DNA of 46,613 bases from Minisyncoccota bacterium (GCA_043750495.1 JAYVBM010000014.1:1-46613), one strand, 5' to 3'; shown: positions 2,422 to 46,613, numbered from the stretch's first letter. Numbers and translations are program-made. The notes: generated by a model from the sequence alone, not told the origin.

Positions 2422-2451
2422 AGTATACCCCCATACTAACTTTACTGTCAC
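2422..2451 (-). promoter_or_regulatory. promoter-like GTGACA-N18-TATACT inside the 3' arm of the hairpin element, 10 nt before the mscS ATG
   Basis: minus strand reads GTGACAgtaaagttagtatgggggTATACTtagtgcgtatATG. Confidence 0.4.
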
Positions 2452-2562
2452 TCTGTTTTTCGTTAACTTTTCCACAAACATATAGACTATTATGCACGCG
2501 AACTTTGCACTTGGGTGAAATTTATCCGCAATACAACAGCAAAGTTAGTGCCGGGGGTATAC
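2423..2562 (-). repeat. hairpin element copy 1 (~140 bp, minus orientation)
   Basis: The reverse complement fits the family consensus GTATACCCC..CACTAACTTT..CTGT ... GAAAAACAgAGtGACAgtAAAGTTAGT..GGGGTATAC. The terminal ~26 nt are inverted repeats. Confidence 0.85.
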
Positions 2563-2629: not shown

Positions 2630-2765
2630 TATACCCCCACACCAACTTTCCTGTTGTTTTTGCGACAAAGACAACAGATATCGACCCTGGTAGCGCAGAC
2701 AAAGATACCTGTTTATTAAATACTGAATAAAAGAGAGCGACAGGAAAGTTGGTGTCGGGGTATAC
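2630..2765 (+). repeat. hairpin element copy 2 (~136 bp)
   Basis: tatacccccacaccaactttcctgt...acaggaaagttggtgtcggggtatac. The arms pair with each other and carry compensated changes relative to the other copies. Confidence 0.85.
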
Positions 2766-2766
2766 T
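2737..2766 (+). promoter_or_regulatory. promoter-like GCGACA-N18-TATACT in the 3' arm of copy 2, 6 nt before ATG 2773
   Basis: GCGACAggaaagttggtgtcggggTATACTtggtctATG. Confidence 0.4.
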
Positions 2767-8975: not shown

Positions 8976-8991
8976 CGTTTCTATACGTCTG

Positions 8992-9062
8992 TCGGGGAGC
9001 GGAGAATCGAACTCCGACCGCTCGGTCCCAAACCGAGTACACTACCACTATGCTACACCCCG
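8992..9062 (-). tRNA. tRNA-Pro (anticodon UGG), no encoded CCA
   Basis: Minus strand CGGGGTGTAGCATAGTGGTAGTGTACTCGGTTTGGGACCGAGCGGTCGGAGTTCGATTCTCCGCTCCCCGA folds as a cloverleaf with anticodon loop TTTGGGA. One T:T mismatch in the acceptor stem. Confidence 0.9.
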
Positions 9063-9090: not shown

Positions 9091-9152
9091 TATTAATCCT
9101 GAAATATAAGAAATAAAAGTGAACTTTAATTTCTTATATTTCAGGATTAATA
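9091..9152. repeat. perfect 23-24-bp inverted repeat with a 14-nt loop
   Basis: attaatcctgaaatataagaaat (9092-9114) and atttcttatatttcaggattaat (9129-9151). Confidence 0.9.
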
Positions 9153-11052: not shown

Positions 11053-11724
11053 TTATTGAACTGTCAGCTCTTTCTGCATCAGCTCAATCCAACGGATAAG
11101 CTTGTGCTTCAAAACTGTGCTGCCGATTATAGTATTTCCTACGCCATGATGCAATGTCTTATGTTTGGGTTTGCCTTTTATGATTTGATTCTTGTAAAAC
11201 TGAGCGTAGGGCAGGGTAGTGGACTTATGCCACTTTTTCATACAAGCCTCCTCGTTATGGTCAGTATAGAGAAACAGCCAAAATTTGATTTTATTCTTAG
11301 GCACCCCCAGATACTCCACTGCAAAGGAAATAAACGTCCTCTGGGCCGGTAGGCGGGCTGTAGTGAGACGTATAATGCGCTGGTCTGCCATATCGCCAAG
11401 CGAAGCATAAGTTATCAGTCCAGCAATAAACCGTGGGTTCGTTTTGTAGTGCTTGAACTCCACTTCAGCCGATCGTTTGATTTCTTGATACCGATGCGCC
11501 CGTTCTTTAGTCCGGGTTTTACTCATGAGCTTCAATCGCTTAGCGTTTTCTTGTCCAGCCCGGCGTTTGTTCTGTTTGGTAATTTCTGCCGAAATAGCAT
11601 TATTTTTCAACCACTTTGATACGGTGGACTTCGATACTTCGCATATCTTTGCTATCTCTTCCAGGGTAAAGCCGCGCGTGCGAAACTGCAACGCTTGCTT
11701 AAATTTCTCTTCATTTCGAACCAT
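11053..11724 (-). CDS. HTH-domain protein of unknown function
   Basis: N-terminal HTH (FTLEEIAKICEVSKSTVSKWLKN), then a basic helical region and an uncharacterised C-terminal domain. The stop is 2 nt from tRNA-Gly. Confidence 0.55.
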   Translation of the reverse strand: MVRNEEKFKQALQFRTRGFTLEEIAKICEVSKSTVSKWLKNNAISAEITKQNKRRAGQENAKRLKLMSKTRTKERAHRYQEIKRSAEVEFKHYKTNPRFIAGLITYASLGDMADQRIIRLTTARLPAQRTFISFAVEYLGVPKNKIKFWLFLYTDHNEEACMKKWHKSTTLPYAQFYKNQIIKGKPKHKTLHHGVGNTIIGSTVLKHKLIRWIELMQKELTVQ

Positions 11725-24576: not shown

Positions 24577-25227
24577 ATGAAACATATGACAATCACAAAG
24601 TTTGGACACTGTTGCATACTTATTGAGGTAAAAGAAAAACGAATTCTCGTTGATCCGGGGCGTTTTAGCACGGGACAAAACCAACTCACAGACATTGATA
24701 TTGTTCTCATTACCCACGAGCACGCGGACCACTGTCACACTGAGTCGGTGCTACAAATAGTAGCAAACAATCCTGATGTAATTATAGTTACCAATACCAG
24801 TGTCGCGACTTTATTGCAAAGCCTTGAAATCGAGGCCCACGTTATTGAAGGAAGAGACAGAGCCAATGTTGCCGATGTTTCTCTCGAAGCTTTTGACGGT
24901 GAGCATGTAGAAATTTTTGAGGAATTTGGTTTAGTGCAAAATACCGGCTACCTTGTTGAAGACCACTTCTTCTTTCCCGGTGACGCCTATACCGTTCCAA
25001 ACAAGCAAGTTAAGGTACTGGCGCTTCCGGTTAGTGGGCCTTGGTGCAAAATAGCTGACGCTATACGGTACGCGCTTGTGGTCAAACCCGCGGTCGCCTT
25101 TCCGGTACATGACGCTACTTTAAACGAAGCGGGTCAGGCCGTGACCTATCCGCACTTTGAAAGAGAGTTAAGTAAGGCAAGTATTGAGTTCTTGGTGTTG
25201 GAGAGTGGGGTAGCGAGAGAGTTTTAA
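24577..25227 (+). CDS. MBL-fold metallo-hydrolase
   Basis: HEHADH motif. TGGTAATAT at 24570-24578 lies 7 nt before a second ATG at 24586, which may be the true leaderless start. Confidence 0.75.
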   Translation: MKHMTITKFGHCCILIEVKEKRILVDPGRFSTGQNQLTDIDIVLITHEHADHCHTESVLQIVANNPDVIIVTNTSVATLLQSLEIEAHVIEGRDRANVADVSLEAFDGEHVEIFEEFGLVQNTGYLVEDHFFFPGDAYTVPNKQVKVLALPVSGPWCKIADAIRYALVVKPAVAFPVHDATLNEAGQAVTYPHFERELSKASIEFLVLESGVAREF

Positions 25228-25622
25228 ACTTGCGTCTTACTAGTACCGTAAATAGCCGTACGTACTTGGTTGATTATTTCCTTTATCGGGACCTGTGCCT
25301 TTACAATGTAATCTTCTGGTTTTTGCATAATTGCGTGAGCGACATTCTGGGCATCGCTGTGATTGGTAAGAAACATGATCCGAGCTGTTTTGCCCCACTC
25401 ATCTTGTCGAATTCTTTCAGCCGCTTGGTGCCCATTTAAGATGGGCATATCGATATCGAGCAAGATGAGGTCGGGATGACGCTCTAGCGCAAACTCCACA
25501 CCCTGCTTTCCATTCTCTGCCATCATGATGTTGAGTCCGGCCTTTATAAACGCCACAGCGTATAACTCACGAATACTCTGGTCGTCTTCCACTAGCAGCA
25601 CGGTCTTTTTTTCAGTATCCAT
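25224..25622 (-). CDS. stand-alone response-regulator receiver protein (CheY-like)
   Basis: VLLVEDD...DLILLDIDMP...K receiver signature, with no output domain. Confidence 0.85.
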   Translation of the reverse strand: MDTEKKTVLLVEDDQSIRELYAVAFIKAGLNIMMAENGKQGVEFALERHPDLILLDIDMPILNGHQAAERIRQDEWGKTARIMFLTNHSDAQNVAHAIMQKPEDYIVKAQVPIKEIINQVRTAIYGTSKTQV

Positions 25623-25978: not shown

Positions 25979-26018
25979 AAAAACGCGACGTGGGCTTAAG
26001 CCCACGTCGCGTTTTTTT
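25979..26018 (+). terminator. strong rho-independent terminator
   Basis: aaaaacgcgacgtgggc-ttaa-gcccacgtcgcgttttttt, a 17-bp stem. Confidence 0.85.
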
Positions 26019-26022
26019 GACC

Positions 26023-26442
26023 ATGTATAATATAAGTACTATGGTCTTTTCGTACGTCATCCGCGACTACTTCACCTGGCACTACATTCGAGCCTGGAAA
26101 GAGCTGTTTAACGTCTGGCTTAACTTTCTTTGGTTTACTATTCATTTCTTTTCTGTTCCGGAACTATTTCATTCACTCTTTGCCCCTTGGAAGCGAATGA
26201 CGGAAGAACGCAAACCAGGTTTTCAACTTGAAGACATCGTCTCATTTATTATCATCAATCTTCTATCTCGATTGATTGGTGCCTTCCTCAGGGCGATTAT
26301 TATCGTAGCTGGTCTGTTTGTGCTTACAATTGTGATTATTGTAGGCGCTTTGACTTATGTATTTTGGTTACTGGCTCCTTTTGTGATTATCGCTAGTTTT
26401 GTTTTTGGCATTAGTATGTTGTTCTCTTATATCACTGTATGA
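26023..26442 (+). CDS. hypothetical membrane protein, translationally coupled to the Clp-type ATPase
   Basis: About 4 TM helices. ATGA overlap with the next gene. Start taken at ATG 26023, downstream of the terminator. Confidence 0.45.
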   Translation: MYNISTMVFSYVIRDYFTWHYIRAWKELFNVWLNFLWFTIHFFSVPELFHSLFAPWKRMTEERKPGFQLEDIVSFIIINLLSRLIGAFLRAIIIVAGLFVLTIVIIVGALTYVFWLLAPFVIIASFVFGISMLFSYITV

Positions 26443-28887: not shown

Positions 28888-28915
28888 GAAAAAGCGGCAC
28901 CCTAGTGCCGCTTTT
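28888..28915. terminator. bidirectional hairpin terminator
   Basis: aaaaagcggcac-ccta-gtgccgcttttt. Confidence 0.8.
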
Positions 28916-29829
28916 TATTTCCCGTGGAATTTCTTGTGAACCTCCCGCAGGTGCTTGTCGGTGACGTGGGTGTACACCTGGGTCGTACCGATATGCGCAT
29001 GGCCCAGAAGTGCTTGCACAGAGCGAAGGTCGGCACCGTTACTCAAGAGGTCAATAGCGAAGCTGTGGCGCAAAACATGGGGAGTCACTTTGCGAGTAAT
29101 GCCGGCTGTCGCCGCGTAATGTTTCATAAGTCGCTGTACTGCTCGCGGTTGAAGACGCGCATCGCCACCATCATTAACTTTGCGTCCATGCCGGACAAAT
29201 AGCGCGTCGTCTAAGTCTTTACGATTTTTCAAATAGTCTCGCAAGCTGTCTTTGGCAATCTCAGACAAAAAAACTACTCGTACCTTATCGCCCTTGCCAC
29301 GAACTGAGAACTCGTCGCGAGTGAGATCAACGTCGTCGATAGATAGACCGCATAGTTCAGAAATACGGAGGCCAGTTGAGAAGAACAGCTCCAAAATTGC
29401 CTTGTCTCGTTTTCCTTCGAGTGTCTTTTGATCTGGTGCTTTAAGTAGACGTTTGAGTTCGGTGGGAGAAATCAGATCGAGCGACCGCTCGGGAACCTTC
29501 GCTAACTCGATACGCTCTGGAGACAGTGCTTCTATGCCACGCTTGCGTAAAAACTTAAGAAAAGCCCGCAAAGCAATCAAGTAGTAGTTCTGCGTCCGGC
29601 GCTTCATCGGTTCCACCCGGCCACCCATTTTTGTCCCCGCTTGCCGATTGAGATGGAGGCGAAATTCTCGGACCTGTTCCTCAGTGAGTTCCGTTACTGT
29701 CTTTACCTTAACAAAGGCAAAAAAACGCTCCAAGTAGCGGTCGTAGTTCTCGACTGTCTTGATACTTCGACCTCTCTCAATCTCAAGATACTCCAAGAAC
29801 TGCCGTTTCAAGGCCACCAAGTCTCTCAT
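28915..29829 (-). CDS. tyrosine site-specific recombinase (XerC/XerD family)
   Basis: SAM-like N-domain, then the R..HxxR..Y catalytic pattern (GLRISEL, HVLRHSFA, LGHAHIGTTQVYTHV). Confidence 0.85.
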   Translation of the reverse strand: MRDLVALKRQFLEYLEIERGRSIKTVENYDRYLERFFAFVKVKTVTELTEEQVREFRLHLNRQAGTKMGGRVEPMKRRTQNYYLIALRAFLKFLRKRGIEALSPERIELAKVPERSLDLISPTELKRLLKAPDQKTLEGKRDKAILELFFSTGLRISELCGLSIDDVDLTRDEFSVRGKGDKVRVVFLSEIAKDSLRDYLKNRKDLDDALFVRHGRKVNDGGDARLQPRAVQRLMKHYAATAGITRKVTPHVLRHSFAIDLLSNGADLRSVQALLGHAHIGTTQVYTHVTDKHLREVHKKFHGK

Positions 29830-36514: not shown

Positions 36515-36651
36515 GTATATCCCGACACTAACTTTAGTGTAGTTTTTGCTAGCGCCCATCATTCTTGTTCCAAACAACTCAGACGAAAAGCGGACTAGGT
36601 AGTGAAAAGAGTGAAAAACACTAGCGACACGAAAGTTAGTGTGGGGTATAC
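36515..36651 (+). repeat. hairpin element copy 3 (~137 bp)
   Basis: gtatatcccgacactaactttagtgtagtttttgctagc ... gaaaaacactagcgacacgaaagttagtgtggggtatac. Confidence 0.85.
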
Positions 36652-36652
36652 T
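36624..36652 (+). promoter_or_regulatory. promoter-like GCGACA-N17-TATACT in the 3' arm of copy 3, 8 nt before ATG 36661
   Basis: GCGACAcgaaagttagtgtggggTATACTcaccctatATG. Confidence 0.4.
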
Positions 36653-43753: not shown

Positions 43754-43787
43754 AAAAGGGCCGGCACATACGTGTGTCGGCCCTTTT
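43754..43787 (+). terminator. rho-independent terminator
   Basis: aaaagggccggcaca-tacg-tgtgtcggcccttttc. Confidence 0.75.
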
Positions 43788-43808
43788 CTCGTGCCAAAAT
43801 TCTCTATG

Positions 43809-43947
43809 GTATACCCCGACACTAACTTTCATGTAGTTTTTGCGAGCATTCATCATTGTGACCGATAGGTGGAACTATAAGTAGCATGTTGAACTGTTTT
43901 AATGTGGAGAAAAACTTGAGCGACAAGAAAGTTAGTGCGGGGTATAC
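43809..43947 (+). repeat. hairpin element copy 4 (~139 bp)
   Basis: gtataccccgacactaactttcatgtagtttttgcgagc ... gaaaaacttgagcgacaagaaagttagtgcggggtatac. Confidence 0.85.
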
Positions 43948-44079
43948 CCCGACACTAACTTTCTTGTAGTTTTTGCTAGCCTCTAGTGTTAATCCTACAA
44001 ACAGACTTTCGCAACATGCTGACTAGGCAATGAATAGCGTGTAAAACACTAGCGACAAGAAAGTTAGTGCGGGGTATAG
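43942..44079 (+). repeat. hairpin element copy 5 (~138 bp), sharing GTATAC with copy 4
   Basis: gtataccccgacactaactttcttgtagtttttgctagc ... taaaacactagcgacaagaaagttagtgcggggtatag. Confidence 0.85.
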
Positions 44080-44080
44080 T
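44052..44080 (+). promoter_or_regulatory. promoter-like GCGACA-N17-TATAGT in the 3' arm of copy 5, 8 nt before ATG 44089
   Basis: GCGACAagaaagttagtgcggggTATAGTgtccgcacATG. Confidence 0.4.
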
Positions 44081-46047: not shown

Positions 46048-46058
46048 CCAAAACTATT

Positions 46059-46082
46059 CTACCTATCATACATGATAGGTAG
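46059..46082. promoter_or_regulatory. 24-bp palindrome, candidate operator 1
   Basis: CTACCTATCATacATGATAGGTAG. Confidence 0.55.
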
Positions 46083-46108
46083 ACTCCCCATCATCCCACT
46101 CAAAACTT

Positions 46109-46130
46109 TACCTATCATGTATGATAGGTA
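46109..46130. promoter_or_regulatory. 22-bp palindrome, candidate operator 2, overlapping a -10-like TATGAT 8 nt before ATG 46134
   Basis: TACCTATCATgtATGATAGGTA. Confidence 0.55.
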
Positions 46131-46133
46131 GAT

Positions 46134-46574
46134 ATGAAAAGAGAAATTAGTAAAATTAAAGAGAAAGAAAAGAAGGCCACACTTGAAGCCCTATACGAAT
46201 CGGCTAGTCGTATCAAAGGTGACGACGCAGTTCGCATATTTATCAGCGACATACTAACGGAAAGTGAACGAATCATTGTTGGTCGCAGGTTGTTAATTGC
46301 GAATCTAATTTTGACTGGTCAGACTTACTCAGAAGTTCACAATCAACTTGGTGTGAGTCCAAACACTTTCAGTCGGATCAGACAATGGTTGACTGGCCGA
46401 TTTCCGGACTATGACAAAACTCTTAAAGAAACCGCACCGACTCCCAAAAAGACCAAAGTTATCTACACCAGGGTGGCGCCTTTTTCATTTGCCCATCTAA
46501 AAAAGAAGTACCCCATGCACTACTTACTTTTTACTCTTTCCGAAAAAACGATCGCCAACTTGAAATCGAAGTAA
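46134..46574 (+). CDS. TrpR-like (YerC/YecD-family) DNA-binding protein
   Basis: ILTESERIIVGRRLLIANLILTGQTYSEVHNQLGVSPNTFSRIRQWL resembles the Trp-repressor-like YerC/YecD fold. Confidence 0.65.
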   Translation: MKREISKIKEKEKKATLEALYESASRIKGDDAVRIFISDILTESERIIVGRRLLIANLILTGQTYSEVHNQLGVSPNTFSRIRQWLTGRFPDYDKTLKETAPTPKKTKVIYTRVAPFSFAHLKKKYPMHYLLFTLSEKTIANLKSK

Positions 46575-46579
46575 TACTT

Positions 46580-46601
46580 TACCTATCACGTATGATAGGT
46601 A
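46580..46601. promoter_or_regulatory. 22-bp palindrome copy 3 (one arm mismatch), 5 nt after the stop codon
   Basis: TACCTATCACgtATGATAGGTA. Confidence 0.5.
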
Positions 46602-46613
46602 AGCAGTCTAGAC

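Follow-up and report, generated by a model that had tools for sequence, protein, structure and literature searches.

Five hairpin-forming units in a 46,613-nt contig of a Minisyncoccota bacterium (the window, by which we mean this whole stretch of DNA) are probably copies of a non-autonomous, foldback mobile element of the MITE type that sits in the TATA of -10 boxes and rebuilds the promoters that it enters. The units are present at orthologous sites in some strains and absent from others, are flanked by TATA, end just before start codons and carry promoter-like hexamers. If this reading is right, they would be the first MITE-like family to be described from the Candidate Phyla Radiation (CPR) and an unusually clean case of a transposable element that targets the -10 hexamer and repairs the promoter that it splits. 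They would also lend sequence-level support to sigma-70-type -10 boxes at leaderless positions in many genes of these uncultured bacteria, supply strain-level insertion markers for the population genomics of Patescibacteria, and explain why, immediately 5' of genes, assemblies break and annotation meets odd palindromes of 130 bp and ORFs extended at the N terminus. The question that they raise is which enzyme moves a hairpin with near-identical arms in several lineages.

In the mechanism we propose, the element would integrate into a TATA tetranucleotide belonging to the -10 box of a presumably leaderless gene, leaving TATA on either side, either as a 4-bp target duplication or, if a single-strand mechanism operates, as the target plus an identical right-end cleavage site. 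The insertion would rebuild the -10 hexamer from the right-hand TATA and two bases of the original flank, and the gene-facing arm would provide a new spacer and a -35-like G[C/T]GACA at the optimal distance of 17-18 bp; a sigma-70-type promoter would thus be retained, with the gene's former upstream region displaced by about 131 bp. The tandem pair formed by copies 4 and 5 would have arisen when a second element entered a TATA that the first had left behind. We propose that the arms are conserved because they are recognised by a putative mobilising enzyme, the right arm serving also as promoter, and that the centres drift freely.

Copies, boundaries and orthologous empty sites

The five units lie where the original prediction, made from the DNA alone, had placed them (2423-2562 on the minus strand, 2629/2630-2765, 36515-36651, 43809-43947 and 43942-44079), and a covariance model built from the copies, a check that it had asked for, matches just these five in the window. 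Also borne out are its consensus arms, the one base that stays unpaired in the left arm, and the tandem junction CGGGGTATACCCCG. The termini had to be redrawn: GTATAC had been taken as the end of the unit, but its outer G and C are flanking sequence (copy 2 has ATATAC on the left and copy 5 TATAG on the right), and the true unit is a core of 127-130 bp, CCCC...GGGG, flanked by TATA (Table 1).

A repeat finder groups all five units, each with its own inverted arms (for example, 25 nt and 96% complementary in I3). The outer arms are 26 nt long, 92-96% complementary and accompanied by conserved inner segments, the full inverted arms measuring 26-39 nt. An alignment of the five copies upholds the claim that the arms are much better conserved than the centres of about 60 nt. 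The description of these centres as unrelated does not stand: copies 3 and 5 are still 71-81% alike there, and the centres are therefore diverged homologues. All five copies are intergenic and have no coding capacity, containing just spurious overlapping ORFs. Small size, absence of coding capacity, terminal inverted repeats (TIRs), a TATA duplication relative to the empty site and dispersed, polymorphic copies are the features that they share with MITEs.

Table 1 Element cores, predicted promoters, adjoining genes and a terminator-like hairpin in the window
Feature	Position	Strand	Details
Copy 1 core, 130 bp, CCCC...GGGG	2428..2557	minus	Flanking TATA 2424-2427 and 2558-2561
Copy 2 core, 127 bp	2634..2760	plus	Flanking TATA 2630-2633 and 2761-2764
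Copy 3 core, 127 bp	36520..36646	plus	Flanking TATA 36516-36519 and 36647-36650
Copy 4 core, 129 bp	43814..43942	plus	Left TATA 43810-43813; right TATA 43943-43946, in common with copy 5
Copy 5 core, 128 bp	43947..44074	plus	Right TATA 44075-44078
Predicted MscS-like promoter	2422..2451	minus	GTGACA (2451-2446), 18 bp, TATACT (2427-2422), 10 nt to ATG 2411
MscS-like gene	1551-2411	minus	Pfam MscS
Predicted trypsin-like protease promoter	2737..2766	plus	GCGACA, 18 bp, TATACT, 6 nt to ATG 2773
Trypsin-like protease gene	ATG 2773	plus	Pfam Trypsin_2
Predicted DksA/TraR-like promoter	36624..36652	plus	GCGACA, 17 bp, TATACT, 8 nt to ATG 36661
DksA/TraR-like gene, then ComM-type Mg-chelatase-like ATPase	ATG 36661	plus	Pfam/NCBIfam
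Predicted uvrD/pcrA promoter	44052..44080	plus	GCGACA, 17 bp, TATAGT, 8 nt to ATG 44089
Terminator-like GC hairpin and T run	43758..43789	plus	Ends the upstream ABC-transporter gene; outside the elements; read directly from the sequence

We compared the orthologous intergenic regions of relatives in which synteny with the window is conserved and the flanking genes share 81-95% protein identity. At all four loci, relatives carry an empty site with a single TATA, where the window has TATA on both sides of the core. At uvrD, the site is empty in L112, L134 and L110 (UvrD identity 95, 94 and 89%), reading ..TATAGTGTCCGCACATG, and in L135 (93%), reading ..TATAGTGGTCCGCACATG; the window reads ..TATA[copy 4]TATA[copy 5]TATAGTGTCCGCACATG. 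The G that follows copy 5 and its right TATA was already the fifth base of the uvrD -10 box TATAGT before insertion; the final 'GT' of this box is original flank and is identical in the empty sites. The original prediction had described the tandem pair as fused through a shared GTATAC; the junction is there, but instead of a fusion it is two insertions with one duplicated TATA in common.

The spacer between the MscS and protease genes holds two such sites. In L121, L123 and L125 it is 90-95 nt long, with two -10 boxes and no element. On the MscS side all three relatives read ..AAG TATA CCG.., which on the minus strand gives TATACT, 10 nt ahead of the ATG of MscS; on the protease side L121 and L123 read ..TGA TATA CTGTG(A/T)CT ATG and L125 reads ..GT TATA ATCGTCGT ATG. 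Copies 1 and 2 of the window lie exactly within these two TATAs, with TATA on each side. The DksA-like site is filled in the window and in its sister strain L112 and is empty in L134, L135, L110 and L113, in which the two genes are 16-24 nt apart and TATACT or TATAAT stands 7-10 nt before the ATG. Roughly 160 kb of relatives (81-94% flanking-gene protein identity) yielded no copy, by regular expression in all of them and by covariance model in five loci, and about 32 kb of the sister strain contain a single copy. Contigs identical or nearly identical to the window are present in ENA and Logan metagenome assemblies.

Judging from the aligned sites, each copy is an insertion of the CCCC...GGGG core into TATA that left a 4-bp TATA duplication. 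As several outgroups are empty at each site, gain in the lineage of the window is the parsimonious direction. The empty sites could in principle have arisen by precise, hairpin-stimulated deletion between the TATA repeats, against which phylogenetic parsimony argues. We also considered and rejected a duplication of TA only, with TIRs that end in TA; the joints would then have to read TATATA, and TATA/CCCC...GGGG/TATA is therefore the only symmetric solution.

Predicted promoters and gene starts at the occupied sites

A strong positional bias relative to start codons, set beforehand as a test, is present at all four loci. The gene-facing ('right') end of the element lies 7-11 nt before the ATG of a long same-strand ORF at each of them, with no Shine-Dalgarno sequence between element end and ATG, and the occupied TATA is in every case part of a -10 hexamer (TATACT, TATAGT or TATAAT) located 6-10 nt before the ATG. 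An independent sigma-70 promoter scan found G[C/T]GACA, a spacer of 17/18 bp and TATA[C/G]T in all four gene-facing arms; it reported no promoter at the junction of copies 4 and 5, where the hexamer is TATACC. The arm that bears the -35 faces the gene in 4/4 gene-proximal copies, minus-strand copy 1 included, and the -35-like hexamer of the opposite arm is poorer (ACTACA/ACAACA). From the spacing, transcription from the rebuilt promoter would use the element's -35 and start at the ATG. Against our reading, the left arm drives no gene at three sites and is still conserved to the same degree as the right arm with its promoter. The closest homologues of UvrD and the protease are labelled Patescibacteria group, Candidatus Pacebacteria, Parcubacteria, Nomurabacteria or Kaiserbacteria, which places the window in the genome of an ultra-small bacterium of the Patescibacteria (CPR).

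How much of this bias reflects targeting depends on the available sites. By rough counts, the reconstructed pre-insertion window holds some 177 TATAs, of which about 74 lie outside gene calls and about 14 occupy a -10 position, and the chance that four of four sites fall at -10 is, from these rough counts, about 4e-5 over all TATAs and about 1e-3 over intergenic ones. The bias may stem from true targeting, from the survival of harmless insertions only, or from both, and part of it may come from where intergenic TATAs occur.

TAnnnT stands 4-11 nt before the first ATG in about 21 of 47 likely window genes, compared to 12.8% for all ATGs; -10 boxes directly before starts, as leaderless mRNAs expect, are thus common in this genome. 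In around 40% of the likely window genes, a TATAAT/TATACT-type hexamer precedes the ATG by 5-9 nt and a Shine-Dalgarno sequence is absent (for example, the starts at 97, 1103, 7984(-), 9593(-), 10113(-), 19491, 21210, 22355 and 28915-29829(-)), and others have GGAGG, a pattern that suggests a mixed set of leaderless and Shine-Dalgarno-led genes in this Patescibacteria genome.

There is no need for the elements to act as terminators: upstream of copy 4 stands a terminator-like hairpin that is separate from them, and the element stems have no T run. The separate hairpin is also present at the empty L112 site; the terminator scan did not flag it.

Related hairpins in other Patescibacteria and the proposed mode of movement

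We scanned a degenerate arm pattern over one genome per species and used only loci with paired arms. Among the matches listed, arms paired a few bases apart occur in Saccharibacteria and in Nomura-, Kaiser-, Taylor- and Paceibacteria/Parcubacteria MAGs, and single-arm matches in unrelated phyla are at about chance level (roughly 200 expected, by a rough estimate). Metagenome contigs gave no match to window-type arm patterns, and viral contigs gave seven single-arm matches, none with a partner arm, which we judged to be chance.

The 38 hairpins analysed among the matches listed have cores of 29-44 bp in 31 cases and of 68-135 bp in 7, the usual form being a short-loop hairpin of 35-44 bp with TATA at its flanks, so the form of about 130 bp in the window is a long version of a mostly short-loop family; similar long forms occur in other lineages (L074 and L104). 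In 24 of these 38 an ORF's ATG follows one of the ends at a distance of 6-12 nt (mode 6-7), and gene-facing hexamers end in T in 24 of 25 cases, compared to 22 of 51 other ends (Fisher p = 3.7e-6). An orthologous pair in Nomurabacteria (L001/L089) is filled in one genome and empty in the other at ..TTTTG TATA ATAAAA... The genes downstream elsewhere include those for tRNA synthetases, S2, release factors and NusA/B, and when 150 ORFs near 40 hairpins were classified with Pfam, neither a recurrent family nor a common functional theme emerged.

At one orthologous site (L037 857-932 and L046 6087-6155, the latter from Kaiserbacteria), unrelated arms are joined to the same TATA/CCCC...GGGG/TATA ends: one genome has the common hairpin and the other a 61-bp hairpin with arms CCCCATGAGATAA.../...TTATCTCACGGGG, which suggests that two families of arms have these termini and this target in common. 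A MAG labelled Candidatus Azotimanducaceae (Gammaproteobacteria) has a Patescibacteria-type hairpin (TATACCCCGCACTAACTTT...) on three contigs (L044, L055 and L101), which may be mis-binned CPR DNA or carry a wrong label. At orthologous Patescibacteria loci, L057 (4681-4836) has, relative to L035 (position 236), an extra insert of about 155 nt that adjoins the common hairpin at ..TTATA/G.. and may be another small mobile element in the same neighbourhood.

Near-identical arms across Saccharibacteria and Nomura-, Kaiser-, Taylor- and Paceibacteria, among the matches listed, are unusual for a selfish MITE, and hint at a conserved host factor or function. They also favour the alternative that survives best, unlikely as we consider it, which is REPIN/RAYT-like or IS200/IS605-like: a hairpin folded in single-stranded DNA would be recognised by an HUH (Y1) enzyme, conserved and inherited vertically, which would cut at the TATA beside the hairpin and insert the element 3' of a TATA, possibly in melted -10 open complexes. 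Rather than a MITE in decay that stems from a DDE insertion sequence, the element would be semi-domesticated and have resided in Patescibacteria genomes for a long time. The TATA on each side is consistent with one tetranucleotide serving as target and an identical one as the cleavage site at the right end, and the unrelated arms with the same ends at L037/L046 fit recognition of structure plus termini. A conserved unpaired base marks one arm in both the window type and the Nomurabacteria type (AAGTCTGG), and the stems stay paired through two-sided changes between genomes (CCCCCGCACC/GGTGCGGGGG, CCCCAGCACC/GGTGCTGGGG and ACATT/AATGT). Four cores fold as single-stranded DNA with z = -3.8 to -6.1, core 5 equally well on both strands (z about -5.1).

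Several observations weigh against it. No Y1/HUH gene was seen in the window or in the surroundings of 40 hairpins. A single arm does not fold by itself (DNA fold z = 0.56 and -0.99), and the unit is therefore not a REP doublet; we agree here with the original prediction that it is neither a REP/BIME nor a CRISPR unit. Orientation tracks the gene and no evident replication direction, copies 1 and 2 being opposite to each other and 70 bp apart. TIR subfamilies would produce matched arm changes just as well, and covariation therefore cannot tell DDE from HUH/Y1 chemistry.

For the MITE-like element that we prefer, the mobilising enzyme could be either a DDE transposase whose cut at TATA is staggered by 4 bp or an HUH/Y1 enzyme that acts on a folded single strand. 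Searched against Pfam and NCBIfam, about 38 window ORFs yielded a Xer-type tyrosine recombinase and proteins with an HTH only, but neither a DDE nor an HUH enzyme. A search for long elements bounded by the same termini found none in the window or the loci examined, and neither these nor the 150 ORFs near 40 hairpins gave an autonomous partner or a transposase with matching ends. The window encodes, at 11053-11724 (-), a 223-aa protein that is kept in relatives and whose only recognisable part is an N-terminal HTH, with no catalytic domain detected. This HTH weakly resembles those of transposases and excisionases (IS630, IS21 and IS3, all below threshold); as the protein is present in relatives that have no elements, it is probably unrelated to them.

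The arm substitutions that the original prediction had named as compensated are present in the alignment. Pair 27/123 is C:G in copies 1 and 2, G:C in copy 3, U:A in copy 5 and an A/A mismatch in copy 4; pair 19/131 is U:A, except for C:G in copy 2. Such matched changes are expected for TIR subfamilies and are therefore no proof of selection on a hairpin. Between the orthologous copies 3 of the window and L112, the arms differ at 2 positions and the centre at 7, and this excess of centre changes could reflect selection on the hairpin in place. The proposal that a hairpin, as RNA or as a cruciform, is the selected functional unit is nevertheless not the best supported one, given the TATA-duplicating insertions that the empty sites reveal.

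A fixed regulatory palindrome, serving as an operator or bidirectional promoter module for a conserved Patescibacteria transcription or sigma factor with a large regulon, appears to us very unlikely. It would suit the conservation of the motif in several lineages, its fixed distance from start codons and the position of an arm in the predicted promoter, where it fills the spacer from -13 to -29. It does not suit presence and absence at orthologous sites with exact TATA boundaries, half-site spacing that varies from about 4 to about 90 nt across the wider family, full two-armed copies where there is a gene on one side only and as a tandem pair, or close relatives that have the same genes behind plain -10 boxes without the motif. 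The idea of a regulon was rejected because the downstream genes share no function (MscS, protease, DksA-like and UvrD in the window, others elsewhere).

Most improbable is the structured RNA of the original prediction, a cis-regulatory 5' element or small RNA selected for its long hairpin: each unit folds strongly as RNA relative to dinucleotide shuffles (z = -6.1 to -9.6) and two-sided changes occur at three pairs among six sequences, but DNA folds equally well on both strands, loops in the wider family can be as short as about 4 nt or as long as about 90 nt, the copies are recent insertions with target duplications that are missing from relatives having the same genes, the promoter predicted at the 3' outer edge would leave the hairpin upstream of the transcription start and thus outside the mRNA of the downstream gene, and Rfam gives no match for the unit, which the prediction had been unable to place in any RNA or repeat family known to it (in Rfam 15 just three tRNAs reach the gathering score in the window, and over the tandem pair the best matches at E<1 score 18-23 bits against thresholds of 50-90 and were judged to be chance hairpins).

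Relation to described elements and other palindromes in the window

By analogy, the closest described behaviour to that of the window elements is that of the Correia elements of Neisseria. Correia repeat-enclosed elements (CREE/NEMIS) are non-coding, about 100-155 bp long and bounded by TIRs of about 26 bp; they duplicate TA, often lie 5' of genes, have sigma-70-like promoters at one or both ends and show insertion polymorphism between strains, and no transposase is known to mobilise them (PMC2649163; review PMC10969869). The window elements are likewise small and non-coding, with TIRs of about 26 nt and a duplicated target that contains TA, and they too are polymorphic, placed 5' of genes and equipped with predicted sigma-70-like promoters. 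Unlike Correia elements, they duplicate TATA instead of TA, occupy pre-existing -10 hexamers 6-10 nt before starts (leaderless-type promoters) and have a poorly conserved centre with no evident IHF site, and the Correia TIR consensus TATAG[CT]GGATTAA... has no match in the window at up to three mismatches. Whereas Correia elements belong to one genus, window-type arms are common to several Patescibacteria lineages.

MITEAba12, BrickBuilt, QMITE1 and SonMITE_1 are also small TIR elements, with sigma-70-like promoters able to drive neighbouring genes (PMC10969869). By their description these promoters are incidental and read outward, whereas the window elements would have their -10 rebuilt from the target, and each window copy examined, unlike those MITEs, occupies a -10 box. 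REP and REPIN sequences share with the window elements the abundant intergenic palindromes, hairpins of about 100 nt, conserved ends around a less conserved middle and a conserved flanking tetranucleotide. They differ in that the window arms are not palindromic REPs, the tetranucleotide is TATA on both sides instead of a 5' GTAG, and no gene for a RAYT (an IS200/IS605-type Y1 transposase) was seen in the window or sampled loci. A REPIN is made up of two inverted REPs, each of them a short imperfect palindrome, and the RAYT gene is typically flanked by the repeats. Bertels and Rainey reportedly proposed in 2011 that an enzyme resident in the host, with its gene in single copy, mobilises REPINs in trans.

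Literature on the motif sequence, on CPR promoters and leaderless mRNAs, and on MITEs in Patescibacteria gave no description of the element. A promoter-bearing MITE is of a known kind; the host phylum, the self-repairing TATA/-10 target in leaderless-type genes and the arms common to several lineages appear to be new. A bolder version, which strikes us as unlikely, is that the elements form an ancient Patescibacteria family of hairpin transposons, present in several lineages, recognised through structure plus CCCC/GGGG termini, integrated by a conserved enzyme specifically into the -10 TATA, perhaps into the single-stranded DNA of open promoter complexes, and semi-domesticated as portable promoters. 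Were this so, they would not be junk but would rewire or insulate leaderless genes in tiny genomes.

The window contains other palindromes of separate interest. A segment of about 870 bp between uvrD and rsmA (46053-46613, continuing in L107 12046-12990) is missing from L112 and L110. It includes a TrpR/YerC-like HTH gene (46134-46574) and five copies of a 22-bp perfect palindrome, CTACCTATCAT(A/G)(C/T)ATGATAGGTAG, one of which overlaps the TATGAT -10 box of the HTH gene; by its layout, the segment looks like a small acquired cassette with operators for its own repressor. Beside tRNA-Pro (8991-9062), an AT-rich palindrome of 30+30 nt at 9091-9152, 97% complementary, could be the remnant of an attachment site or a terminator. 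Finally, a perfect 19+19-nt palindrome at 25979-26016 (AAAAACGCGACGTGGGCTT/AAGCCCACGTCGCGTTTTT), located between a divergent response-regulator gene (25224-25622, minus) and a gene that begins at 26023, looks like a bidirectional terminator or an operator.
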